Shown piece after piece: positions 2,346 through 52,617 of a stretch of 64,000 nucleotides of DNA. The stretch is taken from contig OZ241863.1 of the NCBI GenBank assembly GCA_965203055.1, positions 1,056,001-1,120,000 on the forward strand, given 5' to 3'. This stretch comes from Spirochaetia bacterium. GTDB lineage: Bacteria > Spirochaetota > Spirochaetia > SZUA-6 > Bin103. The position numbers and the translations under genes were made by a program. Each line of letters starts with the position of its first letter. Position 1 is the stretch's first letter. The notes beneath the pieces are model-generated. The model ran no database searches. It saw only the letters and a program-made list of their open reading frames with translations, and was not told the origin of the DNA.

Positions 2346-2348
2346 GTT

Positions 2349-2876
2349 TCAATGTTTCATCTTGACCGACTCAGAATTATCTTCAGAAGCTGTTTCAACT
2401 ACCGCAGATACTTGAATAACCGGATCTCGTACCTTAACCAGACTCTCGGAGTCATCCATAGGCTCACCGGCACGGACGTGGGTAAAGTGTGGATCCGGCG
2501 AGCGTGACTCGATACGCCTCAATGTTTCATATTTTGTGATCCACTGAGGTGGCATCAGGGCGCGAGTAAGGGAGCCCATGTCACGGACTATCGTGTTGAC
2601 TCCTCCAACGTTGGCTTTTCGTTCCAGAGTTGACGCCACCGAGAGATGATCTTGTACATCGATAACAGTCACAGTTCTCTTAGGGGCGAGACGTACATAT
2701 CCAAGTACGCCATGTGTGTCAGGATCAGATATGGTATAGGAGCCATGGTCATCATCACCCGGATCGAATATGTGAAACTTCATACCGCGAACTACTCCGT
2801 CCTTAGCTCCAACGTTTATTACGAGGTGTCGTGAATTGAGTACTCTCGCAACTTTTCCATGAATAAGGTCATCCAT
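2349..2876 (-). CDS. Hypothetical protein, beta-barrel/FlgT-C-like (GKVARVLNSRHLVINVGAKDGVVRGMKFHIF), lower GC
   Basis: ORF 2349..2924. ATG 2876 overlaps the upstream stop and follows AAGGAG. The stop lies 3 nt before the DUF1156 start. Confidence 0.7.
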   Translation of the reverse strand: MDDLIHGKVARVLNSRHLVINVGAKDGVVRGMKFHIFDPGDDDHGSYTISDPDTHGVLGYVRLAPKRTVTVIDVQDHLSVASTLERKANVGGVNTIVRDMGSLTRALMPPQWITKYETLRRIESRSPDPHFTHVRAGEPMDDSESLVKVRDPVIQVSAVVETASEDNSESVKMKH

Positions 2877-3375
2877 TTCTCGCTCCTTGAGCATCTTCCA
2901 AATCGATGCTTCCCCGCAGTTCATCTACGTCGTGCGGAACAATGTCGCGCCAGTCTTCAATAGCATCATCCGCTGTCGAAAGTTGCTCAACGACGAACGC
3001 TTCGATTTGTGAAAGTGCTACCCGATGATCGTCGCCTTCTGATTCTTGAGCTTCGGCAACAACACTAGCAACCCTGGAGACACTATTGTACAAAGACACT
3101 AAACGACGGAAAGCTGATCGTGCATGTGGTCTTATAATTTCTCGTGCTGCTGTCTGCGCTGACATCCGCCCAAAGACAAGTGAAGCCAATACCCCGGTTA
3201 TCCAGGGAAGTGCCTGAAGATACACACCTTCAACCTGGGTCAGTCGTCGTGTGGTCGCGGTATATACGAAGTACACCGCTCCTGCAATCGACATCACCAA
3301 CAGAAAAATCGACAATATCAACTGGTACGGATCTGGCAATTTCTTGCCTAAATTGACCTTGTTCTTTCTTCTCAT
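2869..3375 (-). CDS. Hypothetical membrane protein, two N-terminal TM helices plus a helical domain (168 aa), lower GC
   Basis: C-terminal part of ORF 2869..4245. ATG 3375 overlaps the helicase TGA (ATGA). Hydrophobic segments are LILSIFLLVMSIAGAVYFVY and YLQALPWITGVLASLVFG. Confidence 0.75.
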   Translation of the reverse strand: MRRKNKVNLGKKLPDPYQLILSIFLLVMSIAGAVYFVYTATTRRLTQVEGVYLQALPWITGVLASLVFGRMSAQTAAREIIRPHARSAFRRLVSLYNSVSRVASVVAEAQESEGDDHRVALSQIEAFVVEQLSTADDAIEDWRDIVPHDVDELRGSIDLEDAQGARNG

Positions 3376-6300
3376 AGAAGATTGCGCCCTTCCTCGGTGG
3401 TCTCCGCGGCTTCCAGCAAGGACGCGGCGGAGATAGTATAGCTCTCCGAGCTGCGGCTGCGGGCTAGCAGTTTGGCGAACGGGTTGCGCACCCGCAAGAG
3501 CTGCGGCGCGGGGGTGGCGCAGTTGAACACTACGTAGAGCCAATAGCGATCTTCCAGATGGGCCGCCTGCTTCCACTCGTTGGGCTCTACCTCGATGGCG
3601 CCGCGGCCGGACCGACCCTTGACCTCGATGTTGCGCACCGCGCCGCCGCGCTGCGTGGCCAGCAGGTCGAAGCCGGGCCAGTCGGGCAGTCCGGCCACGC
3701 GCGCCAGCGGCGGCTTGGAGACGTCCTGCACCTCGGCGCCGCGCTCGCGCTCCCACGCGACCGCGATGCGCACCGCGAGTTCTTCGATGGTCGCGTCGTA
3801 GCGCTCGCGGTCGGCGGAGTCCACCGCGGGCACGACCAGGGCATGCGCGAGGAAGCGCACGGCGCCGGGAACGACCCGCTCGGGGCCGGCGTCGAGCTGG
3901 TCCAGGGCGCGGTTGCGGTCCGCGCTCAGCGCGCGCTGCTCCTGCCGGATTTCGGCCAATTCGCCCGCGGCCGCGGCTTCGCCGGCGCCGTTCGCGGCGA
4001 GCTGGACGCGGCGGGCGGCCAGCGCCGCGGCGCGCAGGTCGAAGCCGGCGCCGGCGCGGCGCCGGCGGTCGGGCAGTTCGGCGCGCAACGCGGCGCGGCG
4101 TTCTTCGGCCAGCGGCGCCACTACCTGGTGCTCGGCGTAGCGCGCGGCCGCGGCGCGCAGGTCGAGCCCGCGTCCGGCCAGCGGCACGGCGCCCGGGGCG
4201 ACCGCGGGAGCGCCGCGCAGCAGCAGGAGCTGCTCGCCGTCGCACTCCACCGGCACCCCGTCCTCGCCCTGGCGCAGCGCTACCAGCCGGCGTTCCAGCG
4301 TGCGGCGTTCGCCGCGCGCGTTCGGGGCCGGCGCAAACAGCCCGGCGGCGTCTCGATCGGCCGGCTCATCGGGTTCTCGCTCCACCGAGATCTTCGCCAG
4401 GTGGAGCAGGTAGGGGGCAGGTGCGCGCGGATCGCTGAACACGGCGCCGCGCAGGGCGTCGCCGGCGAAGGCGCCGGTGACCTGCGCGGCCAGCGCGTCG
4501 AATACCGGCTCGCCGGGGTGCAGCCAGATGCAGGGAGTGTCGTCCTCGGGGCGGCGCGTGCGCAGGCGTGCGCGCGCCGCGTCGGGGTAGCCTTCGAGCG
4601 CCGGCAGCAGGCCGTCGAGCGCGCCGGGTCGGCCCGGCGCCAGTGAGAAGCAGCCCTCCGGGTCGCCGCGGATCTCCAGATCGAGCAGCGGCGCGCTCTT
4701 CTCGATGAAGCGGCGCACGTAGCCGGGGAGGAGTTGCAGGTAATCCTCGCGCGCGAGCTCGCTACGCAGCGCGTCCAGGTGCCCGGCGACGTCACCGGGC
4801 GGACCGTAGACCGCCCGCTCGCGCGCATCGACCGCGCGTACCCGTGCGCCGGTCGTCAGGGTCTCCACACGTTCCCGGACGTGCTGCGCGCCGGCCTCGG
4901 TCAACGCCGCGCCGAGGTACTCGCGTAGCGAGGCGTTCTCGAACAGCCGCCCGATCACGTCGAACACCTTGTCCGAGCGCAACTCGGTGCGAATCGCTTC
5001 GAGTTTCTCCAGCAACACCTGCAGCACGCGGCCCTCGCGGGTGGCGCCGGCCACGAGGTTGACGATGCGCACGTCATGCCGCTGGCCGTAGCGGTGGATG
5101 CGCCCCATGCGCTGTTCCAGGCGCGCCGGATTCCAGGGGATGTCGTAGTTCGCCATCAGCCGGCAGAACTGCAGGTTGATGCCCTCGCCGGCGGCGTCGG
5201 TGGCGACCAGGTAGCGGGCGCCGTCCGCGCGGCGGAAGTGTTCGACTTGCGACTCCCGCTCCTGCCACCCCAGGCCGCCGTGAATCCATGCCACCTGATC
5301 GGAGAAGCCCAGTCCCTCCAGGCGGCGCACCAGATATTCCAGCGTGTCGCGATGTTCGGTGAAGAGCAGCCACTTCTCGCCGGCGTAGCGCGCGTCTTCG
5401 AGCACTTCACGCAACTTCTCGAACTTCGATTCTTCACCCGCCGCGCACAGTGCGCGCGCCCGGTCGCGCAGGTCCTTGAGGAGCTCGATCTCCCGCTGCA
5501 GCTCGGCGTCCGTGACCGCCGCCAGCGCGCCGAGCACCGCGTCTTCGTAGTCCTCGTTGCGTTCACCCGCGGCATCGTCGCGCGCGTCCTCGTCCGCCCC
5601 GTGGGTGTCGTAGAAGTCGTCTCGACAGCGCCGGTCGAGATCGCTCTGGCGGCGGCGCAGGTCGGCGGCGCGCAGCTTGCCGGACCGCAGGTCGGCCGCG
5701 GTCTGCTCCAACTTCACGATGCGCCGCTCGAACGAACGCAGCAGCGCCCAGGTGGAACTGGCCAGCCGCCGCTGAAACACGCTCAGCGCGAGCTGCACCG
5801 CGGGGCGGTTGTCCAGGCTGCGGCCGTAGACCCGGCGCAGGTAATCGGTGGTCGCGTCGTACAGCGCCTGTTCGCCGGTCGGCCCGCCGGTCAGGTCGTA
5901 ACTGAAGGTATCGCAGGCGCGCGTGCGATAGAGCGGTCGCCCGTCCAGGCTGACCATCTCCTCCTTGGTGCGGCGGATGAAGTGGCGGGCGCGCGCGGCC
6001 GGCGGACAGCGCTTGAGCGCGGCGCCGGTGGCGAATGCCTGCGGATCGAGCAGCCGCCACAGGTGGTGGTAGGGTTCGTCTCGCCCCATGTGCGGCGTGG
6101 CGGTGAGCAGCAGGAGATGATGCGCCGCCCATGGCAGGCCGGCGAAGCGGCCGCCGGGCGGGGCGCCGCCGCCGGCCAGCGCCTCCGCCAGCGCATAGCG
6201 CTGCGTCCGGCGGATGCGGCCGCGGTCGTTGGTCACGCTCAGCTTGTGGGCTTCGTCGAACACCACGAGATCGTACCCCGCGGCGCACTCCCGCAGCGCC

Positions 6301-6971
6301 GCAAACGCGGTTGCGCCGCGCAGGGTGTCCACCGACACGATGGCGAGATCGCCGGCAGGCGCGGCGAACGGGTTGCCGGCCCGCAGCTCCTGGCCGGTGA
6401 CGATGCGGAAGCGGAGGCGGAACAGGGTGCGCAATTCGCGCTCCCAGTTGCCCACCAGCCCGGCCGGCGGCACGATCAGGACCCGCCGGAGGCGGGCGCG
6501 AGAGAGCATTTCGCGCACGTACAGGCCGGTCATGATGGTCTTGCCGGCGCCGGCGTCGTCGGCGAGCAGGAAGCGCAACGGCTCCTGCGGCAACATCCGG
6601 TCGTACACGGCGATGCGCTGATGCGGCAGCGGGTCGATGCGCGCGGTTTCGCTGGCGAAGGCCGGGTTGAACTGGTGGCCGTGGGCGAGGCGCAACGCCT
6701 CGGCGACCGCCGACACGGCGGCGGGGTTGCCGGCGAAGTCGAGGGCCGGCGCCGCCGCCGGAGCCGCGCCCGGCGGCCCGCGGCGCGCGTCCTGCTCGGC
6801 CAGCGCCTCCTCCAGCTCCCGCAGCCGCTGCAGCGCCAACCGCTGCGGCTGCGACTGGCCCGTTTCCCAACGGTGCACCGTCAGCAGAGAAACGCCGACC
6901 CGCGCGGCGAAGCCGGCCTGCGTCAGTTCCATGCGCCGGCGCGTACGCCGCACGCGCCGGGCGTCCGTCAT
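3372..6971 (-). CDS. XRE-HTH + SNF2-family helicase + DUF3883 (PD-(D/E)xK-like) fusion protein
   Basis: HTH LTQAGFAARVGVSLLTVHRWETG; Walker A LADDAGAGKT; DEAH; TATP; EQRMGRIHRYGQ; C-terminal GFDLL...IEVKGR. ATG 6971 preferred because it fits a leaderless promoter; TTG 6980 is the alternative. Confidence 0.9.
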   Translation of the reverse strand: MTDARRVRRTRRRMELTQAGFAARVGVSLLTVHRWETGQSQPQRLALQRLRELEEALAEQDARRGPPGAAPAAAPALDFAGNPAAVSAVAEALRLAHGHQFNPAFASETARIDPLPHQRIAVYDRMLPQEPLRFLLADDAGAGKTIMTGLYVREMLSRARLRRVLIVPPAGLVGNWERELRTLFRLRFRIVTGQELRAGNPFAAPAGDLAIVSVDTLRGATAFAALRECAAGYDLVVFDEAHKLSVTNDRGRIRRTQRYALAEALAGGGAPPGGRFAGLPWAAHHLLLLTATPHMGRDEPYHHLWRLLDPQAFATGAALKRCPPAARARHFIRRTKEEMVSLDGRPLYRTRACDTFSYDLTGGPTGEQALYDATTDYLRRVYGRSLDNRPAVQLALSVFQRRLASSTWALLRSFERRIVKLEQTAADLRSGKLRAADLRRRQSDLDRRCRDDFYDTHGADEDARDDAAGERNEDYEDAVLGALAAVTDAELQREIELLKDLRDRARALCAAGEESKFEKLREVLEDARYAGEKWLLFTEHRDTLEYLVRRLEGLGFSDQVAWIHGGLGWQERESQVEHFRRADGARYLVATDAAGEGINLQFCRLMANYDIPWNPARLEQRMGRIHRYGQRHDVRIVNLVAGATREGRVLQVLLEKLEAIRTELRSDKVFDVIGRLFENASLREYLGAALTEAGAQHVRERVETLTTGARVRAVDARERAVYGPPGDVAGHLDALRSELAREDYLQLLPGYVRRFIEKSAPLLDLEIRGDPEGCFSLAPGRPGALDGLLPALEGYPDAARARLRTRRPEDDTPCIWLHPGEPVFDALAAQVTGAFAGDALRGAVFSDPRAPAPYLLHLAKISVEREPDEPADRDAAGLFAPAPNARGERRTLERRLVALRQGEDGVPVECDGEQLLLLRGAPAVAPGAVPLAGRGLDLRAAAARYAEHQVVAPLAEERRAALRAELPDRRRRAGAGFDLRAAALAARRVQLAANGAGEAAAAGELAEIRQEQRALSADRNRALDQLDAGPERVVPGAVRFLAHALVVPAVDSADRERYDATIEELAVRIAVAWERERGAEVQDVSKPPLARVAGLPDWPGFDLLATQRGGAVRNIEVKGRSGRGAIEVEPNEWKQAAHLEDRYWLYVVFNCATPAPQLLRVRNPFAKLLARSRSSESYTISAASLLEAAETTEEGRNLL

Positions 6972-6978
6972 CCCGTCC

Positions 6979-7025
6979 AATGTAGCGGCTGCTGCAGCTC
7001 CTGTCCAACGGCTATCAAACGATAA
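6979..7025 (-). promoter_or_regulatory. Putative sigma70 promoter for the helicase operon, with a nearby short inverted repeat
   Basis: TGGACA (7007-7002), 17 nt, TACATT (6984-6979), then ATG 7 nt later. TATC-AAAC-GATA inverted repeat at 7013-7024. Confidence 0.45.
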
Positions 7026-7099
7026 TTTTGCTGCGCCGGCTCAGACGGCAGGGGTTGAAGTACTCGATCGCGCGGCTTTCGCAGCACCAGGAGATCGCG

Positions 7100-7619
7100 C
7101 CGTTCTTCGAGCATGTTGATCCGGCCGCGCAGCGCCGCCGGCGGGTCGAACAGGATGGCGGTCGTATCGATGTCGCCGGCGTAGACGTCGCGGTTCACGG
7201 CGAAACTGGTGGTGCCCCATTGGTAGGGAATCGAGTGCCGGCGGGCCGGGGTCGTAGGGAACGTCCAGCCACCGCGCCTCGATATTGCCGACGTTGGTCA
7301 GCTCGCCCGGCGCGATCTCGTCCAGCATTCCCTCGTCGGCCATGACGCGCACCAGGTAGTCGCTGGGGACCGCCACGTCGTAGAGGCCGAGCCGGCCCGC
7401 CCGGAGTGTCGCCAGCAGCTCCGCGTTGGACTCGTAGACGTCCATGGTCACCTCGATCCCGGTCTCGGCGGAGAACTTGGCCAGGAGCTCCTGCGGCATG
7501 TAGTCGAACCAGTGGTAGATCGCCAGGTAGCCGGCGGCCGGTCCCTCCTCGTCCGCCGACAGAGGAGCGCAAGGCGCCAGCGCCAGCGCGACGACCGCAA
7601 CCGCGGCAGTGCGTTTCAC
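7100..7619 (-). pseudogene. PotD/PotF-like polyamine ABC substrate-binding protein, frameshifted and truncated
   Basis: Signal peptide, then IYHWFDYMPQELLAKFSAETGIEVTMDVYESN and YDVAVPSDY. A +1 shift near 7244 restores PYDPG-RRHSIPYQWGTTSFAVN...RINML, after which similarity ends at about half the normal length. Confidence 0.8.
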
Positions 7620-7636
7620 GATTCCACGCCCAGCCC

Positions 7637-8032
7637 TCAGATAGGAGCCACGCGGATGCGCAGCCCGGGTGTGCGGACCAAGCGACGGTCGCCTGTAATG
7701 AGCACCGCCCCCAGCGTTTCCGTCAGGGCGACGTACACTGCATCGTAGGCACTCAGGTTGTCGCGGAGTTGCCAGATGCGGTCCAGGAACGGCTCATGCG
7801 CGTATCGTTCGATATCCAGAGCGCGCCAATAAGCGAGCGCTAGCGCGCCACGCGCGCGGCTCAGCAGTCTTCGGCGGACGTAACGGCGAAGTACGTGCGC
7901 GATCTCCAAGTCGATGAGGTGAGGTACGTGAATGCTGACCTCAGGGCTCGCTACGCGTTTCGCGAGGCGTTTACCAGCGTCAGTATTCAGCAGCAATTCG
8001 ACCGCGCCGGAGGCGTCCAGGACCAGCGGCAA
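7637..8032 (-). CDS. vapC: VapC-family PIN toxin
   Basis: LVLDASGAVELL...HLIDLEI...NLSAYDAVYVAL...LITGDRRL PIN motifs; 131 aa. Confidence 0.9.
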   Translation of the reverse strand: MPLVLDASGAVELLLNTDAGKRLAKRVASPEVSIHVPHLIDLEIAHVLRRYVRRRLLSRARGALALAYWRALDIERYAHEPFLDRIWQLRDNLSAYDAVYVALTETLGAVLITGDRRLVRTPGLRIRVAPI

Positions 8033-8035
8033 GGG

Positions 8036-8290
8036 CTATCGACTGCGCCCGAGCAGTTCGCCGCGGAGGTCGCGTTCTGCGCGGAGTACGTCGGCTGGCG
8101 ACGGGTCGAGGGTCACCTCCGGCTGCTGCTGGATGGCGGCGAGCAGTTCCCGGCGGCTCGGCCGCTCAAGCGCCCGCTCGATTGTCGACATCACGTACTG
8201 CGACATGGAGACCCCTTCCATCGCCGCTCGCGCCTTCAGACGGCGATGCGTGTCTTCCGGGACGTTGCGAATCTGGATCATAATCGACAT
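8036..8290 (-). CDS. FitA-like ribbon-helix-helix antitoxin
   Basis: MIQIRNVPEDTHRRLKARAAMEGVSMSQYV; directly upstream of the PIN toxin. Confidence 0.85.
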   Translation of the reverse strand: MSIMIQIRNVPEDTHRRLKARAAMEGVSMSQYVMSTIERALERPSRRELLAAIQQQPEVTLDPSPADVLRAERDLRGELLGRSR

Positions 8291-8296
8291 GTGATC

Positions 8297-8326
8297 AGTA
8301 TGGATAACATGAAATGTTCATGTCAA
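8297..8326 (-). promoter_or_regulatory. Leaderless sigma70 promoter with operator palindrome for the TA operon
   Basis: TTGACA (8326-8321), 18 nt, CATACT (8302-8297), ATG 6 nt later. Inverted repeat ACATGAA-ATG-TTCATGT at 8307-8323. Confidence 0.7.
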
Positions 8327-8419
8327 CTCAGGCGGATCCGACCAGGCGTCTGCCTAGCGAATCCCGGCAGAGGCTCCGACCGGAACCAGGCACATCTGCA
8401 TGGCATCCTCCGGTGGCGG

Positions 8420-9466
8420 CTACGGCGTTGCCGTGGTTTCGCTCGGATCGCCCGCGCCGAACGGATTGATGGCCCGCACCTGCACTTGGTAGAGCGCGCC
8501 GGCGGTCAGGCCGGGCAGCGTGTGGCCGGTCGTCAGGTGGGTGCTGCCGTCGATGGTACGCCACGCCCGCCAGTCGCGGTCTGCGGGATGGCGCAGCCTG
8601 ATCTGGTAGCCGGTGATGGTGGCATCGGCGGGAAGGTCCCAGCCGAGGATGATGCTCCCGGTTTCTCCCTCCGCGGTCAGGCCGGCCGGAGGCCCCGGGC
8701 AGCGGCTGCCCGCCGCATCCGCAGCGCACGTCACGACGATGTCCATGTCGAGCGGTTCGGGCAGGAGCAGCAGGTCCAGCAACGGGACCTCGAATACCAC
8801 CGCGTTGCCCTCCACGCGGCCGCCGCGCTGCGAAACCAGCTCGCCGTCGGCGGTGACGCGGACGGTGACCAGGGCCGCGGCGAGCGCCTCCGGGCCGGTC
8901 GGCCCCAGGATGAAGCTCATCAACTCCAAGTAGTCTTCCCGCGTACGTTGCGTGTTATCCTGCGGTCCCAGGGAGCGGATGACCGGGTCTTCGAGCAGCG
9001 GGAACACCTCGGCGAACAGTCCGTAGTTTGCCAGATCGAGGTAGAGGCGCACGCGGAGGGCGCCGTCCTCGACCTCCTCGAAGGTGACGAGGCCGATGGC
9101 GTTCGCCGCGGCGGCCGGCAGGACCTCGCGCGCGTCCCGGAAGGCAAACTCGATTTCCACGCGGTGCCTTTCGGGCGCTTCGACCCGGTAGACGGTCACC
9201 CCGGGGCGCTTCATGAGACGGTTGTGAATCGGCTCCAGGTTGATGATGCCGTCTCCCCGCAGCTCGGCGCCGGGGAGCTCGGCGAGGTCGCGCACGAGGG
9301 CGACCATCTCGGTCGAGTAGTCGATGGCCACCGTGGTCTCGCCCGAGCCGTCGCCGCGCAGGTGGAGCTGCTGCGTGACGGTGCACGCGCCGAGCGCCCA
9401 GATCGCGGCCAGCGTCAGAACGAGTGCGAGGTGCCCGCTCCGGCTGCGGGGATGCGCACGGGTCAC
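8420..9466 (-). CDS. Lipoprotein with C-terminal fibronectin type III domain
   Basis: Lipobox ALGAC; N-domain QQLHLRGDGSGE; FN3 PGPPAGLTA...ILGW...ITGYQIR...GLTAGALYQVQVRAIN. Confidence 0.75.
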   Translation of the reverse strand: MTRAHPRSRSGHLALVLTLAAIWALGACTVTQQLHLRGDGSGETTVAIDYSTEMVALVRDLAELPGAELRGDGIINLEPIHNRLMKRPGVTVYRVEAPERHRVEIEFAFRDAREVLPAAAANAIGLVTFEEVEDGALRVRLYLDLANYGLFAEVFPLLEDPVIRSLGPQDNTQRTREDYLELMSFILGPTGPEALAAALVTVRVTADGELVSQRGGRVEGNAVVFEVPLLDLLLLPEPLDMDIVVTCAADAAGSRCPGPPAGLTAEGETGSIILGWDLPADATITGYQIRLRHPADRDWRAWRTIDGSTHLTTGHTLPGLTAGALYQVQVRAINPFGAGDPSETTATP

Positions 9467-9608
9467 GAATGCCGCGGCGAGCCGCCCGGCGGTCGGCGAG
9501 CAAACGTCAGGTGTTCAGCCAGTGCGGCCATCGCGGCGCAGTGTAGCGCATCCGCCGACTGGCCGGCATCAGATTGGGAGGTCGATCGACCGACCCGACA
9601 ATACTTTG

Positions 9609-9637
9609 TTGACATACCTTTCTGGAGATATGATGAT
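9609..9637 (+). promoter_or_regulatory. Possible sigma70 promoter, pointing antisense through the tRNA-like element
   Basis: Perfect TTGACA at 9609-9614 in an AT-rich patch. -10 candidates are GATGAT (17-nt spacer) or TATGAT (14-nt spacer). Confidence 0.45.
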
Positions 9638-9658
9638 TATGGACGTGACGCGCATCAT

Positions 9659-9732
9659 TGGAGGCTGGGGGGATCGAACCCCTGACAAACGGGAGTGACA
9701 GTGCCGCGGCCGGACCACCGGCATCAGCCCCC
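9659..9732 (-). tRNA. Atypical tRNA-like element, anticodon GTC (Asp), Ala-type acceptor stem; possibly pseudo
   Basis: Reverse complement is GGGGGCTG AT GCC-GGTGGTCC-GGC CG CGGCA-CTGTCAC-TCCCG TTTGTCA GGGG-TTCGATC-CCCC CAGCCTCC A. Canonical T-loop, D-loop GG and anticodon loop. It has a C:C mismatch in the anticodon stem, no U8/A14 and no encoded CCA. Confidence 0.6.
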
Positions 9733-9775
9733 ATTTGGGCCACTGAAGGACAAATAAGGTGGCAGTCGTCACGTG

Positions 9776-9812
9776 AAAGGCCACCGGGTTACACCCGGTG
9801 GCCTTTCGTTTA
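9776..9812 (+). terminator. Intrinsic terminator hairpin, possibly bidirectional
   Basis: GAAAGGCCACCGGG-TTACA-CCCGGTGGCCTTTC followed by GTTTAT. Confidence 0.75.
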
Positions 9813-10101
9813 TCGGGCGCAACTACGCGGCGGGCCGCCTGACTACCGTCACACCGCCAGCGGCAGCGCCGGCGAGGGAGCGCAGCCGTGCGCCGCGCAG
9901 TTTCCGCTTCGCCCCTGGCCGCTATCCCCAGGGCATTCGGCTTTACTCCGCGCCGCGGTTTCAGTAGGTTGTGAGCATACCAAGCAATAGCCCGGTTTCT
10001 CTTGCCGCTGTCCGTGGATCGGCCGCGCGTAGTGATTTGGCTGCGTGCCGTCGAGCACCGGCGACGGCGGCGTGTTCGGCGCTCGCGGAGGTTACACGAA
10101 C

Positions 10102-11082
10102 GTGATCACGGTGGAGGGGGTCTCCAAGCGCTACGGCCAGCATCTCGCCGTCGACGACATCAGCTTCAGGGTGGACGACGGCGAGATCGTCGGCTTTCTC
10201 GGCCCCAACGGGGCCGGCAAGTCGACTACCATGAACATCATCACCGGCTACCTGTCGGCCACCTCGGGCCAGGTGGCGGTGGACGGTTACGACGTGCTGG
10301 AGGAGCCGAACGAAGTGAAGCGGCGCGTCGGCTACCTGCCGGAACTGCCGCCGCTCTACCTCGACATGACGGTGCGCGAGTACCTGCGCTTCGTGGCGCG
10401 GCTGAAGAAGGCGGACCGCAGCGCGCCGCCTGCCCGCCGGGAACGCATCCTGGAGCTGGCCGGGATCGCCCACGTGCGCGACCGGCTGATCAAGAACCTG
10501 TCCAAGGGCTACCGGCAGCGGGTGGGCCTGGCGCAGGCGCTGGTCGGCAACCCCAAGGTGCTGATTCTCGATGAGCCGACCATCGGCCTCGACCCGCATC
10601 AGATCATCGAGATTCGCAATCTGATCCGCGAGCTGGGCCACGAGCACACCATCATCCTCAGCTCGCACATCCTGCCGGAGGTGAGCGCGGTGTGCGACCG
10701 CGTGATCATCATCAACCGCGGCCGGCTGGTGGCCTCCGACACCACCGCCAACCTGGGCAAGCGCCTGCACGACAGCAACCAGTTCCGGCTGCGCGTGGCC
10801 GGCGGCGAAGCGGAGGCGCTGGCCGCTCTGCGGGGAGTGGACGGCGTCCACGAGGTGAGCGCGCAGGGCAGCGTGGAGCAGGGCACCGTCGATCTGCGCG
10901 TTGAGACCGCGGCCGGCGCCGACCCGCGGCGCGCCATCTTCCACGCCCTGAGCAAGGCCGATCTGCCGATCTACCTGATGACCGCCATGGACTACACCCT
11001 GGAGGAGATCTTCCTGCAGCTCACGACCGAAGACGCCGCGGCGCAAGCCAACGCCGGCCAGGATGCGGGGGAGGCCGGCTGA
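10102..11082 (+). CDS. ABC transporter ATP-binding protein (GldA-like)
   Basis: GPNGAGKST, LSKGYRQR, ILDEPT; GTG start after GGAGG. Confidence 0.92.
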   Translation: MITVEGVSKRYGQHLAVDDISFRVDDGEIVGFLGPNGAGKSTTMNIITGYLSATSGQVAVDGYDVLEEPNEVKRRVGYLPELPPLYLDMTVREYLRFVARLKKADRSAPPARRERILELAGIAHVRDRLIKNLSKGYRQRVGLAQALVGNPKVLILDEPTIGLDPHQIIEIRNLIRELGHEHTIILSSHILPEVSAVCDRVIIINRGRLVASDTTANLGKRLHDSNQFRLRVAGGEAEALAALRGVDGVHEVSAQGSVEQGTVDLRVETAAGADPRRAIFHALSKADLPIYLMTAMDYTLEEIFLQLTTEDAAAQANAGQDAGEAG

Positions 11083-11945
11083 TGCTCGCCGTACTGCTGC
11101 GCGAGCTGCGCGCCTACTACTTCTCGCCGATCGGCTACATCTTCATGGGCTTCTTCCTGCTGCTGGCGGGGTTCTTCTTCGCCACCGACAACGTGCTGCG
11201 CTCCAACCCGCAGTTCCAGGGCGTGCTGAGCTCCATCATCTTCGTGTTCCTGGTGATCGTGCCGATTCTCACCATGCGCCTGTTCGCCGACGAGAAGCGC
11301 CAGCGCACCGACCAGCTCCTGATGACCGTGCCGGTGAGCGTGACCGGCATCGTGCTGGGCAAGTACTTCGCCGCGGTGGCCGTGTTCCTGTTCACGCTGC
11401 TGATCACCATCCTCTACCCGGTGACCATGAGCTTCTTCGGGCGCCTGCCGGGGTGGGAGATTCTGGGCGGCTACGTCGGCTTCTTCCTGCTCGGCTGCAC
11501 CTTCATCGCGGTGGGGATGCTGATGTCGTCGCTCACCGACAATCAGGTGATTGCCGCGGTCTCCACCTTTGCCGCGCTGCTGCTGATGTGGATCATCGAC
11601 TTCGTCCAGAACGGGGTTCCGGCCGGCACCGCGCCGGGCATCGTGTTCGCCTCCGCGCTGGGGGCGCTGCTGGCGCTGTGGGTCTATCTGGCCACCCGCA
11701 ACCTGGTGATCACCGCGCTGATGGCGGTCGTCGCCGCGGCGGTCATCGTCCTGGTGGCCCTCACCGTGACCGGGTTCTTCGAGACCTTCATCATCGATTT
11801 CCTGGCGTGGTTCTCCCTTACCAGTCGGTTCCAGCGCTTCATGGGCGGGGTCCTGGCGCTGAGCCCGATCGTCTACTACCTCTCCTTCTCGGCCGCGCTG
11901 GTATTTCTGACCGTGCGCGTGATCGAGCGCACCAGGTGGACCTGA
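11082..11945 (+). CDS. ABC-2 permease (GldF-like)
   Basis: RELRAYYFSPIGY, TMRLFADEK, GIVLGKY; multiple TM segments; TGATG coupling. Confidence 0.9.
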   Translation: MLAVLLRELRAYYFSPIGYIFMGFFLLLAGFFFATDNVLRSNPQFQGVLSSIIFVFLVIVPILTMRLFADEKRQRTDQLLMTVPVSVTGIVLGKYFAAVAVFLFTLLITILYPVTMSFFGRLPGWEILGGYVGFFLLGCTFIAVGMLMSSLTDNQVIAAVSTFAALLLMWIIDFVQNGVPAGTAPGIVFASALGALLALWVYLATRNLVITALMAVVAAAVIVLVALTVTGFFETFIIDFLAWFSLTSRFQRFMGGVLALSPIVYYLSFSAALVFLTVRVIERTRWT

Positions 11946-11946
11946 C

Positions 11947-13392
11947 ATGAGCGACGTGAGCGACGGTTTCCTGCGCGCCCAGGTGCGCCGCCTGCGCGAG
12001 AGCAAGCAGGTGCGCTACGGCGGCTACGCCCTGTTGACCTCCCTCGGGGTGGTGGCCGCCCTGGTGCTGGTCAATCTGCTCGTCGACCAGTTCGCGCTGG
12101 AGGTGGACCTGACCGAGAATCGGCTGTTCACCCTGTCGGACCAGACCTTCCGGGTGCTGGACGACCTGACCTCCGACGTCACGGTCTACCAGATCGCCAC
12201 CACCGGCCGCGAGAATCAGTTGATCGACTCGGTGCTGGAGCGGTACGCGCGGCGCAGTCAACACGTCAAGCTGGCCACCCTCGACCCGGAGCGCAACCCC
12301 GGACTGGCCGGCAAGTATGAGGAGGAGGGGCAGGTGCGGCCCGGCGGCCTGATCGTCGACGGCGGCGACCGCTTCCGCCTGATCAGCCAGTTCGACATAT
12401 TCAACGTCAACATGCAGACCCGGCAGGCCAACTCCCTCTCCCTGGAGCAGGAGCTGACCGCGGCGCTGCTGTACGTCACCACCGGTGATCTGCCCACCGT
12501 CTACGTGCTGGAAGGCCACGGCGAGAGGTCGCTGTTCCAGCTCGGCCTCCCCGGTCTCAGCGTCCGCGACCTGCTGGAGAACGAGAACTACGAGGTGGAG
12601 AGTCTGGACCTGGTGTCGCGCGACGAGATTCCGGCGGATGCCGACGTGCTGCTGATTCTGGAGCCGGAGCAGGATCTGACCGGCGCCGAGCTGCGGCGGC
12701 TGGATAGCTGGCTGCGCGGCGGCGGCCGCGCCGTGTTCGCGCTGCAGGGAGCGCGCCGCGCCGCGCTGCCCAACCTGGCCGAGCTGCTCGCCGGCTTCGG
12801 GGTCGAAGTCACCGCCGGCATCGTGGTGGAGGAGTCGGGCCGCCACACGCCCGACAGCCCCGCGTTCCTGGTGCCGGAGATGAGCGGCCACGAAATCGTG
12901 TCGCCGATGCGTTCCGCGCGGCTGTTCACGGTGCTGCCGGCGGCCAGCCCCATCAAGACCCTGGAAACCAGGCGCCGCACCCTCACGGTGGAGTCGTTTC
13001 TCGATACCTCGGAGGGTTCGTTTCTGCGCACCGACTTCGACATCAACTCCGTGGAGCAGCAGGAAGGGGAGCCCAACGGACCGTTCTCGGTGGGCGCGGC
13101 AATCACCGACAACGACCTCGACGGCTACGTGAAGTCGCGTCTGGTAGTGTTCTCGTCGGTGCTGTTCCTGACGCAGCCCTACCAAGCCAACTACGACATG
13201 CTGCTCAACAGCCTGAGCTGGGCGCGCAGCCGCGAGGAGTCGATCTCCATCCGCGCCAAGTCGTTGCGCACCTTCCCGCTGCGCATCACCCGGCTGGCCG
13301 CGCTGATCATCTCCGGCGTCGCCGTGCTGATCATACCGCTGGCCGTGTTCGGCGGCGGCCTGGCGGTGTGGCTGCGGCGGCGCCACCTGTAG
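11947..13392 (+). CDS. GldG-like ABC-associated auxiliary protein
   Basis: N-terminal TM, DLTENRLFTLS, VYVLEGHGE, C-terminal TM ending WLRRRHL. Confidence 0.85.
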   Translation: MSDVSDGFLRAQVRRLRESKQVRYGGYALLTSLGVVAALVLVNLLVDQFALEVDLTENRLFTLSDQTFRVLDDLTSDVTVYQIATTGRENQLIDSVLERYARRSQHVKLATLDPERNPGLAGKYEEEGQVRPGGLIVDGGDRFRLISQFDIFNVNMQTRQANSLSLEQELTAALLYVTTGDLPTVYVLEGHGERSLFQLGLPGLSVRDLLENENYEVESLDLVSRDEIPADADVLLILEPEQDLTGAELRRLDSWLRGGGRAVFALQGARRAALPNLAELLAGFGVEVTAGIVVEESGRHTPDSPAFLVPEMSGHEIVSPMRSARLFTVLPAASPIKTLETRRRTLTVESFLDTSEGSFLRTDFDINSVEQQEGEPNGPFSVGAAITDNDLDGYVKSRLVVFSSVLFLTQPYQANYDMLLNSLSWARSREESISIRAKSLRTFPLRITRLAALIISGVAVLIIPLAVFGGGLAVWLRRRHL

Positions 13393-13403
13393 CGGAGGGA
13401 CCG

Positions 13404-14855
13404 ATGGCGAGTGACCGCGCGGGCCAGGCCCGGGCGCGGCGCCGCGGCGGGCGGCGCCTGCTCATGCTGGCGGCGATCGTACTCGGCGTGGCCGCCCTGG
13501 CGGCGCTGCTGATCGTGGCGCAGCGGCGCCCGCCGCCGGTGCCCGAAGCCGACCCGACGCCGCCCAAGCCGGAGATTTCGCGGGTCGACATCGACCGCAT
13601 CACGGCGGTGTCGTTGACCGGGCCGGGCCGCGAGCAGCCGTTCAGCATGCGGCGTACGGAGTCCGGCTGGGAAATCGCCGGCGCCGGGCGCGAGATTCCG
13701 ATCAAGGAATCGCGGATCGACGACGTCCTGTACAGCTTCGGCAGTCTGTACGCGGAACGGGTGATCGAGGAGGAGGCCGCCGACCTGGCCCAGTACGGGC
13801 TGGATCCGCCGGCCGTGGTGGCGGTGGCCGCGCTGGATGACGAATCCACCATCGAGGTGCATCTCGGCGACCGCACGCCGGCGGGCAATACCTGGTATCT
13901 GGGCCTGCCGGGCAGGCGCATCGTCTACTCCGTGTGGGTCAACCACGGCAACCACTACTACTACACGCTGGACGACCTGCGCGGCGACGAGCTGCCGGCG
14001 ATCAACTCCGAGGCGCTCAGCTATCTGCGGCTGCGGGGGCCGGAAGCGCCGACGATCGAGGTGGTGGAAACCAACCCGGTGGACGTGCGCTTCGCCAACC
14101 TGCTTACCCGGTTGGCGGTGGTGCAGCCCTACGCCGCCCCGCGCGCCATCGACAGCGAGAAGTTTACCGAGGTGCAGTCGCTGCTGGCCGGACCGCGCAT
14201 CGACCGCATCGTGAGCGACGATCCGGCGGCGGCCCAGGAGTACGGGCTGGCGCCGCCGCGTCTGGAGCTGCTGGCGCGCGACGCCGAGGGCGCGGTGTTC
14301 GAGTTGCTGGCCGGCGCCGAGACCGACGACGAGGTGTTCTTCCAGGTGCCGGGGCGCGTCACGGTGTATGCCATGAAGCGGTCGCGCGCCGGCATCCTCG
14401 ACCTGCAGCCGTTCGAGCTGGTGGACAAGTTCGTGCTGATCCTCAACATCGAGTCGGTGGACGCCATCGAGATCGAGCATCCCGGGGGCGGCAGCCGCCT
14501 CGCCATCGAGCGCACCGGCGCCGGGGACGAGCTGGTGGAGACGTTCGCCATCGACGGCGCCGCGGTCGAGGACAAGCCGTTCCGCGAGTTGTATCAGCTC
14601 ATCATCGGGTTGCTGGCCGACGCCGAGCTGCCCGCCGCCGGCCAGGCGGCGATGCTGGAGGCGGCGCCGGAGGTGCGCATCACCTACCTGATGAACTCGC
14701 CGCCCGACTCGCGGCAGGCCGTCGCGCTGGTGCCCTACGACCGCCAGTTCTTCGCCGCGGTGCGCGGCGGGGCCGCGGAGTTCATGGTCTCCCGCGCTCA
14801 GGTCGCGCGCCTGCTCGACGGCCTCGCCGGCCACACCGCCGCCGCCGGCAGTTGA
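13404..14855 (+). CDS. DUF4340 domain-containing membrane-anchored protein
   Basis: N-terminal TM; repeated YGLDPP/YGLAPP motifs; typical fourth gene of Gld-like operons; GGAGGG RBS. Confidence 0.8.
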   Translation: MASDRAGQARARRRGGRRLLMLAAIVLGVAALAALLIVAQRRPPPVPEADPTPPKPEISRVDIDRITAVSLTGPGREQPFSMRRTESGWEIAGAGREIPIKESRIDDVLYSFGSLYAERVIEEEAADLAQYGLDPPAVVAVAALDDESTIEVHLGDRTPAGNTWYLGLPGRRIVYSVWVNHGNHYYYTLDDLRGDELPAINSEALSYLRLRGPEAPTIEVVETNPVDVRFANLLTRLAVVQPYAAPRAIDSEKFTEVQSLLAGPRIDRIVSDDPAAAQEYGLAPPRLELLARDAEGAVFELLAGAETDDEVFFQVPGRVTVYAMKRSRAGILDLQPFELVDKFVLILNIESVDAIEIEHPGGGSRLAIERTGAGDELVETFAIDGAAVEDKPFRELYQLIIGLLADAELPAAGQAAMLEAAPEVRITYLMNSPPDSRQAVALVPYDRQFFAAVRGGAAEFMVSRAQVARLLDGLAGHTAAAGS

Positions 14856-15091
14856 CCGCCGGCGCCGGCCCGGCAAGATACCGACGTGGAACGCCGGTTT
14901 CGCGGACGCGCGCCGCCACCGGTAACAGATTTCAGGGGACGCCGGCGCGGTTGGGTAAAATGTATCCAGCTTGCAGCCGGTTCTGGCGCCGCGGGTCGTT
15001 TCGACCCATTGGCCCGCCCCGCGGCCGCGCCGAACAGCTCTGGGAAAGCCCGGGAAACGTCCTGCAGGGGCCGGAATCGCCGCCGCGGCAG

Positions 15092-15108
15092 TTGGCACGG
15101 TTCCTGCT
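15092..15108 (+). promoter_or_regulatory. Sigma54 (-24/-12) promoter for hsp20
   Basis: TTGGCACGGTTCCTGCT versus consensus TGGCAC-N5-TTGCW; 38 nt upstream of the ATG. Confidence 0.65.
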
Positions 15109-15146
15109 TACAGGTTGGTGACACACCAACTCATAGGAGGAAGGAC

Positions 15147-15581
15147 ATGAGAAGCCTCGTTACCTATCGTCCCTACCGCCCCTCGCTGGAGAACGTCGAC
15201 CGCTGGTTCGACACCCTGTTTCAGGACTGGAACCGCCCTGCATTCGCCACCGCCGCGCCCCGCGTGGACGTGCGCGAGGAAGCGGACGGCTACCACCTGG
15301 AAGCGGAGCTGCCGGGTCTGACCGAGCAGGACTTCACCGTCAACGTGGAGCACGACCTGCTCACCATCGCCTCGCAGCGCGCGCAGGAGAGCGAGCGCGA
15401 GGAGCATGGCTACGTGATCCGCGAGCGGCGCGCCGGCGCCTTCAAGCGCTCGTTCGCGCTGCCGCAGGATGCCGACGCCGACGGGATCAGCGCCCGCTTT
15501 CGGGATGGGCTGCTGACCGTGACCGTCCCCAAGACGGCCAAGGCGCAGCGCAAGCAGATCACCGTGCAGAGCGGCGCCTGA
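15147..15581 (+). CDS. Hsp20/alpha-crystallin small heat-shock protein
   Basis: PRVDVRE...AELPG...ERRAGAFKRSFALP...ARFRDGLLTVTVPK; AGGAGG RBS. Confidence 0.93.
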   Translation: MRSLVTYRPYRPSLENVDRWFDTLFQDWNRPAFATAAPRVDVREEADGYHLEAELPGLTEQDFTVNVEHDLLTIASQRAQESEREEHGYVIRERRAGAFKRSFALPQDADADGISARFRDGLLTVTVPKTAKAQRKQITVQSGA

Positions 15582-15603
15582 CGCGCCGCCCCTCGACTCC
15601 GAC

Positions 15604-15635
15604 CAACGAGCCCCGCCTCCGCGCGGGGCTCGTTG
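15604..15635. terminator. Hairpin between convergent genes (bidirectional terminator)
   Basis: CAACGAGCCCCGC-CTCCGC-GCGGGGCTCGTTG. Confidence 0.65.
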
Positions 15636-15688
15636 CATTGGCCCGCCGCCGGCCGAAGCCCAACCTGCGGGCGCGCGCGAGCAGTTTC

Positions 15689-16663
15689 TCAGTACGGCGG
15701 GCGGCCTTTCCCTGATACCCGGTCGAGGAGCTCGGCTCCGCTTTCGCACTCGATGATCCAGACGCCGGCTTGCGCCAAGCGGTCCGCATCGGCGGTCTGC
15801 TCCAGGAGCGCTGCCAGCCGTTGCGCCGTGTCGTGGTCGAACTTCCGCGCCGCCTGCCGGCGCAACAGCGCGCGTTCCTCCTCCAGGCCGCGCTCGTATC
15901 CCCGGCGCCGCTGCGACCGCAGCAGCGGATCGTGATCCGGCCCGGTGCCCTCCCGCTCGCCGAGCGCCGTCCCAACCCGCTCCAGCACCGCGCTGGTCTG
16001 CGCCGACAGCGCCGGTTCGTTCAGCGCCTCGTGAATCTCCTCCGCCGTCCACCCCGGAAACGCGCGGCTCTCCGGCGCCGTCCGGTACGCGCCGGCCTCC
16101 AGCAGGTGGATCGTCAGCCCCGGCCGCCGGCTCCGCGGGCGGCTCGGCGCGGCCTCGTCCGGCACCTCCACCCATACCTCCGGGAACCCCCACGACTCGT
16201 ACAGCGCCAGCTTGCCGCGCCGCACGTCGGTGGTGTGGTCCACCTCCAGCACTACGTCGGGATAGTCGTCGACGCCGATTACCATCGCCGACGGTCCCGG
16301 CAGGCGGGCGCTGCCCGGATGCAGGTAGACCGACTCGTCCGCCTGCATGATGCTGCGCGGCCCGTCGTGCTGGCGCAGGTCCATCGAGCCGTAGCTTTCG
16401 ATGGGAGCGCCGCGCACCGCGGCGATTCGTTCGGTGAGCCGGGTCAGGCGGCCGGACGGCCGTTCGTGATAGGGGCTGGTCGGTTCGCAGATCCAGGCGG
16501 TTTCGGTAGCGCCGTCCCAGTACTCCAGCCGCCGTTCGCTGCGGTCGAGCTCGTCTGCCGGCAGGTGGACCGGCGTGCAGCCGGGGAACTCCGGCGCCGG
16601 CGGCGCGGCCTCCGCGCCGGGGCGCGACCCCGTGGCGGTCTTGGAACTCTTGGTGGTTGCCAT
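15689..16663 (-). CDS. Uma2-family PD-(D/E)xK endonuclease-like protein with Rpn/DUF4351-like C-terminal tail
   Basis: RLEYWD, HE, MQADESVY, PDVVLEVD, LYESWGFPEVW; tail LLRRQAARKF...WIIECESGAELL. Confidence 0.8.
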   Translation of the reverse strand: MATTKSSKTATGSRPGAEAAPPAPEFPGCTPVHLPADELDRSERRLEYWDGATETAWICEPTSPYHERPSGRLTRLTERIAAVRGAPIESYGSMDLRQHDGPRSIMQADESVYLHPGSARLPGPSAMVIGVDDYPDVVLEVDHTTDVRRGKLALYESWGFPEVWVEVPDEAAPSRPRSRRPGLTIHLLEAGAYRTAPESRAFPGWTAEEIHEALNEPALSAQTSAVLERVGTALGEREGTGPDHDPLLRSQRRRGYERGLEEERALLRRQAARKFDHDTAQRLAALLEQTADADRLAQAGVWIIECESGAELLDRVSGKGRPPY

Positions 16664-16747
16664 GGCGCCACGGTACGCGGACCGCCCCGGTCGCGCAACC
16701 GCGCACCACCGGGCCACCTGGCGACCCGACGCCGCCAGCGGTCCGTC

Positions 16748-17425
16748 CTATTGCGGGGGTGAGATGCCGAGTTCGGCTTCGCTTTGGCGGAGGTAGAGGG
16801 GGGTCACGTCGGCGGCCGGGGTGGGGGTGCCGCGGAGGGTCAGCTCCAGCAGGCTGCGCGGCGCCGGGGCGGGGAGCTCCGCGTCCACCAGCCAGCGGCT
16901 TTCCAGTTCGCCGCCAAGTCCGGCGGCGAACTGGGCGGCGGCCGGGCCGGTCAGGAGCACCGCCTCGTCCGGCGCCGCGGCGGCCTGCAGCGCGGCGGCC
17001 AGCTCGGCCGGCCGCCGGTCCAGGTAGGGACCGACGCGGCGGCCCTCCCGGTAGCAGGCGGCGTAGAAGCGACGCTTGCGGGCGTCGATCAATGGCACCA
17101 CCAGCCCCGGCGCGCGGCGCCGGGAGTAGGCCAGGGCGTCCAGGCCGCTGATTCCCACCAGCTTCGCGCGGCCCCCCGCGGCCATGCCCTTGGCGGTAGC
17201 GAGGCCGATGCGCACCCCGGTGAACGAACCGGGCCCGATGCCGACGCCGATCAGGGCGGTCTCCGAGGCCTTGAGGCCGAGCTGCGCGGTGACGCGGGCG
17301 ATGCAGGGCGCAAGCTGCGCCGCGTGCTGCAGCCCGCAGTGAGCATAGTGAGCGGCCCACGAGTCGCCGTCCGCGGCGGCCACCACCAGCGTTTCGGTGG
17401 CGGTGTCGAAGACCAGAGCGTTCAA
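16748..17425 (-). CDS. tsaB: tRNA t6A biosynthesis protein TsaB
   Basis: FDTAT, GIGPGSFTGVRIG, IDARK, PLYLRQSEAE. Confidence 0.92.
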   Translation of the reverse strand: MNALVFDTATETLVVAAADGDSWAAHYAHCGLQHAAQLAPCIARVTAQLGLKASETALIGVGIGPGSFTGVRIGLATAKGMAAGGRAKLVGISGLDALAYSRRRAPGLVVPLIDARKRRFYAACYREGRRVGPYLDRRPAELAAALQAAAAPDEAVLLTGPAAAQFAAGLGGELESRWLVDAELPAPAPRSLLELTLRGTPTPAADVTPLYLRQSEAELGISPPQ

Positions 17426-17895
17426 GCGTGCTCCCCGTCGGGCTCGGTAATCTCCACCTGCCGGCCCAGGTCATCGGTAATGTCGAGGCGCACCTGGATC
17501 GTATCCTCCGGCAGCGCGCCGCCGGCGCGTTCCGCCCACTCCACCAGCGCTACCCCCGAACCATGGATGAAGTCGTCCAGCGCCAGCGACGCCAGCTCGG
17601 CGGCGGAGTCCACCCGGTACAGGTCTATGTGGTAGAACGTGACCGGCCCGCCGGCGTGTCCTCCCTCATATTCCAGTACCAACTGGTAGGTGGGGCTGGT
17701 GACCGCCTCGGTAATCCCCAGCCCCTGCGCCACCCCCTTGGCGAACGTCGTCTTGCCGGCGCCCAGCGTCCCCCGGAGCGCGATCACCGCGCCGCGGCGG
17801 GCGGCCAGCCGCCGCTGCAGCCGTCCGGCGAGCCGCGCCCCGGCCGCCACGGTGTCGGCCGCGGTGCGGCACGTCAGCCGCGTCACCCGCGCCAC
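17422..17895 (-). CDS. tsaE: tRNA t6A biosynthesis ATPase TsaE
   Basis: GTLGAGKTTF, VTSPTY, HIDLYR, LVEWAE. Confidence 0.93.
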   Translation of the reverse strand: MARVTRLTCRTAADTVAAGARLAGRLQRRLAARRGAVIALRGTLGAGKTTFAKGVAQGLGITEAVTSPTYQLVLEYEGGHAGGPVTFYHIDLYRVDSAAELASLALDDFIHGSGVALVEWAERAGGALPEDTIQVRLDITDDLGRQVEITEPDGEHA

Positions 17896-17899
17896 GCCG

Positions 17900-18997: not shown

Positions 18998-19012
18998 CGA
19001 CAGGTCCGCCCG

Positions 19013-44122: not shown

Positions 44123-44126
<4 letters not shown>

Positions 44127-45337: not shown

Positions 45338-45475
45338 GGCCGGCGCGCCGGCACGGCGCCGATCGCCTGGCGCAGGAACTGTTCCACCGCGCGGCGGTCG
45401 CGGCGCGCGCAGGAATCGGCCGCGGCCGGCGCCGGCGGGCTGACGGTCGTCGGCAACCGCGTCACTCAGCCGGCG

Positions 45476-46750: not shown

Positions 46751-46919
46751 GTTCGCATCCTCCAGGTGCGCCGGCTCCGCTGCGAGGTTGTCGCCGGAAG
46801 CCGCATGCCGAGCCGGGCGCAGGCCCGCCAAGGTCCGCAACCGCCCGCCTGCCGCGCCGTTGGTCAGCGCGGCGTGCGGGCGCATCCTACTAGGAAGCTC
46901 GCGCGCTGTGGAGCGATCG

Positions 46920-46941
46920 TCAAGTATTGGGGTATACTTGA
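46920..46941. promoter_or_regulatory. Operator-like palindrome in the divergent promoter region of the carotenoid operon
   Basis: TCAAGTAT-TGGGGT-ATACTTGA, a perfect 8-bp inverted repeat in an AT-rich patch. Confidence 0.55.
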
Positions 46942-52237: not shown

Positions 52238-52243
52238 GACATA

Positions 52244-52554: not shown

Positions 52555-52617
52555 AAATTGGAAGTGCGCCGCGCCGCGCGCGCACCGCCGGCAGCCCGCA
52601 TGCTATGCTGGCAGGAG

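Follow-up and report, generated by a model that had tools for sequence, protein, structure and literature searches.

A tRNA-like element with an alanine-type acceptor stem and an aspartate anticodon, possibly a V-arm-less member of the allo-tRNA family, at the edge of a toxin–antitoxin and defence island in a spirochaete

A tRNA-like element on the minus strand of a 64-kb stretch of spirochaetal DNA (hereafter the window) combines the acceptor identity of an alanine tRNA with the anticodon of an aspartate tRNA (Table 1). On balance, we consider that it is probably a gene of the allo-tRNA family which has no V-arm and whose activity is uncertain or low. Within this reading, we give about the same odds to a silent relic and to a gene whose activity is low or conditional. 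The element was probably carried in together with the toxin–antitoxin and defence island that adjoins it. The allo-tRNA family itself has already been published; the V-arm-less form, as read from the sequence, appears to be what is new.

Allo-tRNAs still lack a known natural role and, to judge from titles and the opening lines of abstracts, the literature on them beyond the discovery paper and one review appears to be engineering or selenoprotein work. Here, 64 kb of genomic context are available: the element has a housekeeping operon on one side, a toxin–antitoxin/defence island on the other and candidate transcription signals around it, which makes the locus a concrete place for testing the expression, the charging and the toxin–antitoxin link of allo-tRNA-like genes. 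Activity of the V-arm-less form would mean that a class I tRNA with a pure Ala identity can be built on the 8/4, Sec-like frame, and that bacteria have, besides tRNA-ProX, another natural way of encoding mistranslation. As a relic, the element would instead be a record of how allo-tRNA genes decay, and of why standard tRNA finders miss them.

Table 1. Positions of the tRNA-like element, its parts and the neighbouring features in the window
Feature	Position	Strand	Remarks
tRNA-like element	9659..9732 (read 9732..9659)	minus	74-nt cloverleaf
Acceptor stem	9732-9725 with 9667-9660	minus	8 perfect pairs
A-U linker, 2 nt	9724-9723	minus	
D hairpin, 5 bp G+C with TGGT tetraloop	9722-9709 (loop 9717-9714)	minus	
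C, unpaired	9708	minus	
Anticodon arm	9707-9689	minus	six stem positions; loop 9701-9695
Variable loop, 6 unpaired nt	9688-9683	minus	
T arm, 4-bp GGGG/CCCC (9682-9679 / 9671-9668), loop TTCGATC	9682-9668	minus	
Discriminator A (A73)	9659	minus	
Sigma-70-like promoter, TTGACA-17 nt-GATGAT	9609..9637	plus	10/12 consensus matches
Perfect 15-bp hairpin, 3-nt loop, T-rich tail to about 9815	9775..9807	plus	unique in window
Putative lipoprotein, C-terminal fibronectin type III	8420..9466	minus	Pfam fn3 2.4e-12
RHH antitoxin, VapB-like	8036-8290	minus	FitA-like RHH 4.1e-12
PIN-domain toxin, VapC-like	7637-8032	minus	Pfam PIN 2.1e-10
Truncated PotD-like fragment	7041-7619	minus	NCBIfam PotD, profile positions 9-121 of 348
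HmaA-like SNF2 helicase, N-terminal HTH	3372-6980	minus	PADLOC HmaA 7.5e-157
HmaB-like DUF1156 methylase	3-2345, runs off window	minus	PADLOC HmaB 2.6e-96
GldA/GldF/GldG-like ABC operon, housekeeping-looking	10045..14855	plus	profile matches

The structure was first checked by reading the minus strand directly. A preliminary description of this DNA had reported an 8-bp acceptor stem with G3:U70 and A73, a 4-bp T stem GGGG/CCCC around TTCGATC, a GG in the D loop, an anticodon loop CT-GTC-AC, a C:C mismatch in the anticodon stem, and the absence of both U8/A14 and a long variable arm; each of these points agreed with the sequence. In the acceptor stem, pair 3 is G:U and pairs 1, 2 and 4 are G:C (G1:C72, G2:C71 and G4:C69), and with the discriminator A the whole AlaRS identity set is in place. 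The D stem has five pairs, or six if a U:C mismatch is counted, and the GG lies inside its tetraloop. The anticodon stem consists of five pairs, one of them G:U, and one C:C mismatch (30:40) directly above the loop-closing A:U pair, and the GTC anticodon occupies 9699-9697 of the loop CTGTCAC. Position 8 is a paired G instead of U8, and no CCA is encoded in the gene. Altogether, 21 of the 22 stem pairs are intact, as are the T loop, the D-loop GG, U33 and A37.

A canonical tRNA-Asp(GUC) shares the anticodon loop with the element and nothing else that defines it. The same CTGTCAC loop was found in a tRNA-Asp gene recovered in the genome scan described below (locus L007), and we take the loop of the element, including C38, to be identical to that of E. 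coli tRNA-Asp. In contrast to a canonical tRNA-Asp, the element has an 8/4 instead of a 7/5 branch, a Sec-type instead of a standard D arm and A73 instead of G73, it is without U8/A14, and it is not detected by a standard finder.

RNAfold predicted this cloverleaf as the MFE structure, except that the anticodon stem, whose six stacked positions include the C:C and the G:U, was open in its lower part. With the eighth acceptor pair closed, the evaluated energy was −31.7 instead of −28.4 kcal/mol, and because this pair is worth 3.3 kcal/mol, the 8/4 arrangement is preferred over a 7/5 arrangement with an A:C mismatch. In the ensemble, the acceptor stem formed with a probability of about 1.0 and the internal helices with probabilities of 0.08–0.23. 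The fold z-score of the element was −1.1 on the minus strand and −1.0 on the plus strand; as a test of strand these values do not discriminate, and they were rejected for that use. An energy obtained for the mirrored cloverleaf on the plus strand fell below the MFE of that strand and was discarded, since its non-canonical pairs had been mis-scored.

The loops and their spacing were far more telling than the folding energy. A search pattern that left every stem free and fixed no more than the linker, a few bases of the acceptor and the loops had one match in the window and none in 100 shuffled windows. When applied to 596 Gb of sequence (185,579 species genomes), the same pattern was found at 10 places, and ARAGORN called a gene at all 10: two tRNA-Sec, seven tRNAs and one tmRNA. 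The specificity of this loop and spacing pattern indicates that the element is derived from a tRNA rather than being a chance fold. One of the seven tRNA loci was given an odd four-base anticodon by ARAGORN. This gene (L008, 1671-1744 on the plus strand of an uncultured gammaproteobacterial contig) carries aagc, and its type was left undetermined by the program.

None of the 10 pattern matches in the 185,579 genomes, a collection that does not include the source genome, was a homologue of the element. This negative result is weak, because the pattern was strict, with the D stem fixed at 5 bp, and would also miss the published G3U70 allo-tRNAs (6 bp). A tblastx comparison of positions 1-22000 of the window with the 10 pattern loci gave no synteny, and a blastn search with 9600-9800 against plasmid and phage collections gave no match. 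Relatives of the host can nevertheless be recognised from the window proteins. IF3 is 94–99% identical in many uncultured relatives, on contigs of up to 7.8 Mb, and 75% identical in a Spirochaetaceae MAG, the nearest named one, and the fibronectin type III lipoprotein encoded immediately downstream of the element has homologues of 80–82% identity in relatives. To judge by matching lengths, one relative's contig of 17,618 nt appears to carry both an IF3 of 98% and a lipoprotein homologue of 81% identity, and synteny seems to be kept.

The preliminary description had proposed ARAGORN and Infernal as checks. ARAGORN at default settings reported no tRNA or tmRNA gene in the whole window and thus did not call the element. 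The Infernal-type check came out in two ways: nothing in the window reached an Rfam gathering score, yet at relaxed thresholds the element gave a sub-threshold match to tRNA-Sec (RF01852), with 27 bits against a cut-off of 47 and an E-value of 0.0039 for a 601-nt stretch. RF01852 was the top family of the tRNA clan and the best Rfam family overall. The alignment ran end to end (model positions 1-91), with the D arm of the element on the D arm of the model and the V-arm alone skipped. With its threshold lowered (-ps), ARAGORN did report the element, as tRNA-Asp(gtc) at 9658-9733. This call is a weak indicator at a chance-level rate, there being three such matches in the real window compared to 0.77 per shuffled window (30 shuffles). 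Lowering the threshold to 60% produced a meaningless permuted tmRNA and other spurious tRNAs, which were rejected.

The match to RF01852 raises the question of whether the element is a tRNA-Sec gene (selC) that decayed by loss of the V-arm and mutation of the anticodon. The true tRNA-Sec genes in the pattern scan (L001 and L010) share the plan of its 5' half, which would suit such an origin. We regard it as very improbable all the same, given that the score falls 20 bits short of the cut-off, that the branch is 8/4 and not 8/5 (13 bp), and that the anticodon is GTC and not UCA, in a loop which is exactly that of tRNA-Asp or of the GUC allo-tRNAs rather than a mutated UCA loop. In addition, no selA-, selB- or selD-like gene was present among the window proteins scanned.

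Even less credible is a relationship to tmRNA, whether as a tRNA-like domain or as an attachment site left over from the integration of the island into a tRNA or tmRNA gene. G3:U70 and A73 are common to tmRNA, the element does lie at the edge of an island, and its acceptor stem resembles what we take to be the acceptor stem of E. coli tmRNA plus one extra G:C pair. However, the element has a full anticodon arm, with neither a tag reading frame nor pseudoknots, and no tmRNA was reported by ARAGORN at default settings or by Rfam at its gathering score, the permuted call at the 60% threshold being meaningless. Neither half of the element recurs in the window, there were no relevant direct repeats in positions 1-20000, and no integrase was found among the window proteins scanned, which are a part of all its ORFs.

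The plan of the element is best filed as that of an allo-tRNA minus the V-arm, or as a derivative of that family. In allo-tRNAs (Mukai et al. 2017, PMC5389517), the acceptor branch is 8/4 or 9/3, the D stem is long as in tRNA-Sec and capped by a tetraloop, the anticodon stem is lengthened and the V-arm is long. They were first recovered as sub-threshold or false-positive matches to tRNA-Sec, and their anticodons, among which UAU, GCG and GUC predominate, are unrelated to their identity (PMC5389517). The element resembles them in its 12-bp branch split 8/4, the two-nucleotide linker, the long Sec-like D stem with its tetraloop, a GUC anticodon unrelated to the acceptor identity, the G3:U70 and A73 pair of determinants, the sub-threshold tRNA-Sec score and the presence of a toxin–antitoxin pair nearby. 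It differs from them in its variable region (6 nt compared to about 17–20 nt), in its D stem of 5 bp (6 with the U:C), in the C:C of its anticodon stem and in its host, a spirochaete lineage with 70% G+C DNA, whereas the published hosts are Clostridia, Proteobacteria and Acidobacteria, with most examples on short metagenome fragments (PMC5389517). The six stacked positions of its anticodon stem would exceed the canonical 5 bp if the C:C were counted; RNAfold opened the lower part of this stem.

The published sequences were compared with the element by eye. The supplement of PMC5389517 holds 731 allo-tRNA rows, and the comparison covered 72 of the 161 GUC rows of its first sheet as well as the three rows labelled 'G3U70' (374-376). 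Like the element, all three G3U70 rows begin with GGGG and have an acceptor stem of 8 bp, a T stem GGGG/CCCC and A73, while the AT linker and the TGGT D loop each appear in two of the three. The CTGTCAC anticodon loop and a T arm of the type GGGG-TTCGA-CCCC recur in many of the 72 compared GUC rows. A V-arm, of about 17–20 nt in the GUC rows, was present in every one of these 72 and in all three G3U70 rows. Together with the tRNA-Sec model, these tables bear out the structural reading of the preliminary description (Ala acceptor identity, Asp anticodon, 8/4 branch and an allo-like plan), as far as the rows compared extend. In the abundant group of G73 GUC rows from grassland soil, the third acceptor pair was read by eye as G:U even though these rows are typed 'major', so that the type label, on the rows seen, may understate how common G3:U70 is in the GUC group.

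Two other families show part of the same combination. The (8/4) tRNA-His of alpha-proteobacteria and their phages has the 8/4 branch and, in some members, A73 (PMC5389517), like the element, and differs from it in anticodon and identity. The tRNA-ProX of Streptomyces and Kitasatospora are natural dual-identity mistranslating tRNAs (PMC11415595). They resemble the element in joining the acceptor identity of one amino acid to the anticodon of another, but do so with a Pro identity in a canonical 7/5 frame, where the element is Ala-type and 8/4. No synthetase gene was found near the element among the window proteins scanned. The tRNA-ProX genes have a dedicated ProRS paralogue next door.

A mechanism can be proposed for the allo-tRNA-family reading. 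A transcript of the minus strand, if made, would be matured by RNase P and the CCA-adding enzyme. It would then be expected to be charged by AlaRS through G1–G4, G3:U70 and A73, since for this enzyme a minihelix of acceptor and T stem that carries G3:U70 is established as sufficient (PMC11415595, PMC5389517). SerRS would not charge it; Ser identity depends on the V-arm and G73, both of which are missing, and so this identity should be gone. The identity set of AspRS includes the GUC anticodon, C38 and G10. AspRS might therefore charge the element as well, which could make part of the pool harmless, a possibility that the preliminary description overlooked. Decoding of GAC and GAU would probably be weak, because the C:C beside the loop-closing pair opens the anticodon stem, and at most low-level Asp-to-Ala misreading would therefore be expected. 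An active copy would be costly, since GAC makes up 365 of the 459 Asp codons (80%) in 16 genes of the window.

A rival reading goes beyond this and takes the element to be expressed, alanylated, accepted by EF-Tu and used to read GAC and GAU as Ala, perhaps under stress or in connection with the toxin–antitoxin pair. Every Ala identity position of the acceptor stem is present and nearly all stems are intact. In E. coli, where G3:U70 allo-tRNAs decoded efficiently, Ala was the main residue that some of them inserted at an amber codon (PMC5389517). The absence of tertiary contacts between V-arm and D arm in tRNA-Sec (PMC7609411) suggests that loss of the V-arm may be tolerated, and tRNA-ProX is a natural bacterial precedent (PMC11415595). 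On the other hand, the C:C mismatch adjoins the anticodon loop, and none of six allo-tRNA(UAU) variants that were tested with destabilised stems was active (PMC5389517). An active mistranslator would also be toxic given the prevalence of GAC, and Ser-inserting allo-tRNAs killed E. coli on induction (PMC5389517). With no minus-strand promoter found and no homologue matched in the genome scan, we think such an active mistranslator unlikely. Of the candidate outcomes put forward in the preliminary description, which also include a decoy and a non-ribosomal Ala donor, we rate a decayed chimera no less likely than an active tRNA.

The transcription signals around the element point mainly to the other strand. 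The element lies inside a 580-bp non-coding gap (9467-10044), crossed by no ORF with coding-like GC3; an ORF that spans the element on the plus strand (9649-9987) was regarded as spurious, and no protein in the database corresponds to it. Between 9300 and 10200 the only consensus promoter is the plus-strand site of Table 1, which has a perfect −35 hexamer, lies in an AT-rich patch, and faces the hairpin across the antisense of the element with a predicted start near 9644; on the minus strand, this interval contains no consensus promoter for the element. No other promoter was found for the GldA/F/G-like ABC operon. With respect to the element, the hairpin is upstream when the minus strand is read and downstream when the plus strand is read, and on the plus strand it resembles an intrinsic terminator. 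The promoter scan itself seems informative in this genome: five consensus sites were found in the first 20 kb, where 1.2 are expected from shuffles, and two of the four other sites lie directly upstream of the VapB-like (8290) and helicase (6980) starts on the correct strand.

These signals would suit a plus-strand unit, either a stand-alone sRNA spanning about 9644-9815 (~170 nt) or a leader belonging to the gldA-like operon, in which the promoter drives transcription, the 15-bp hairpin ends or attenuates it, and the tRNA-like part is an antisense fossil. The T-rich tail is on the plus strand, and the 172-nt plus-strand RNA folds with a z-score of −4.2. However, the minus-strand region folds equally well (z = −4.1), the hairpin driving both values, and AT-rich patches favour promoter-like matches anyway. 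The strand assignment of the hairpin is further weakened by a 13-bp perfect hairpin at 15604-15635, between convergent Hsp20 and Uma2-family genes, which has no T tail, so that the tail says little about strand. The element itself argues for the minus strand. Its T loop, D-loop GG and U33/A37 make tRNA sense on that strand only, its two G:U pairs would be C:A on the plus strand, and the plus-strand mirror has 19 of 22 pairs, compared to 21 on the minus strand. A plus-strand Rfam family was the explanation that the preliminary description had allowed might overturn its reading, and none was matched beyond the hairpin, even at relaxed thresholds. We judge the plus-strand unit unlikely, if anything a little more so than an active mistranslator. 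An 8-nt inverted repeat flanking the element (9643-9650 / 9767-9774) was discounted, as ~0.7 such repeats are expected by chance in 301 nt.

The two strands could also work together. The locus might be an RNA toxin/antitoxin module of the abortive-infection type, in which an Ala-charged tRNA with an Asp anticodon is the toxin and a complementary plus-strand RNA the antisense antitoxin. The tRNA would be toxic through proteome-wide Asp-to-Ala misreading, the antisense RNA, running from the promoter at 9609-9637 to the terminator at 9775-9815, would hold it in check, and the module would travel with the VapBC and Hma genes. We give this idea little credence. In a milder version, the element would serve the PIN (VapC-like) nuclease next door as a decoy or a substitute substrate.

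For the V-arm-less allo-tRNA gene that we prefer, the evidence counted on the other side is thus the absence of the V-arm, the C:C mismatch, the silence of the finders, a z-score of only −1.1, the lack of a minus-strand promoter in the scanned interval, the promoter and terminator on the plus strand, and the lack of a matched homologue in the genome scan.

The surroundings of the element are consistent with an allo-tRNA. It sits at the junction of core genes, represented by the ABC operon, and an accessory island with a toxin–antitoxin pair. The VapBC-like type II pair (7637..8290) is 1.4 kb away on the same strand; the VapB-like protein also matches an NCBIfam VapB family (1.9e-5), below the cut-off. 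Allo-tRNA genes often occur near toxin–antitoxin systems, and some copies are inactive or pseudogenes (PMC5389517). The junction position and the toxin–antitoxin pair fit this published association. Between the pair and the element, the product of the lipoprotein gene begins with a signal sequence and a lipobox-like N-terminus.

Several minor features of the region were also observed. The PotD-like ORF next to the toxin gene encodes 192 aa, corresponding to the N-terminal third only of PotD/PotF polyamine-binding proteins, and appears to be the remnant of a gene at the edge of the island. Behind the plus-strand promoter, a GTG at 9645 begins a 17-codon frame that runs to 9698, antisense to the element. 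The minus-strand promoter sites at 8297-8326 and 6979-7007 end ~7 nt before the VapB-like start and at the helicase start, respectively, which suggests that mRNAs in this organism can be leaderless or nearly so. The hairpin between the Hsp20 and Uma2-family genes, lacking a T tail, likewise raises the idea that terminators here may do without a U tract.

Between the HmaB-like and HmaA-like genes, a stretch of about 1 kb (2346-3371) has 48% G+C, facing promoter-like sites at 3288-3316 (plus strand) and 3339-3312 (minus strand), and one small low-scoring ORF only (2646-2834); this stretch may have a foreign origin or may serve to regulate the defence system. A second defence-type locus (50873-55304) consists of an HmaC-like AAA+ ATPase/DUF499 protein (52464-55304, PADLOC E-value 9.3e-99) and an adjoining HNH-domain protein (50873-52237). 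It is ~45 kb from the HmaA- and HmaB-like genes, and the three Hma components are therefore found in two places. Finally, genes for a lycopene cyclase, a long HMG-CoA-synthase-like protein and a fused methyltransferase/amine-oxidase (phytoene-desaturase-like) protein at 44123-47905 and 39428-41848 suggest a carotenoid/isoprenoid cluster.
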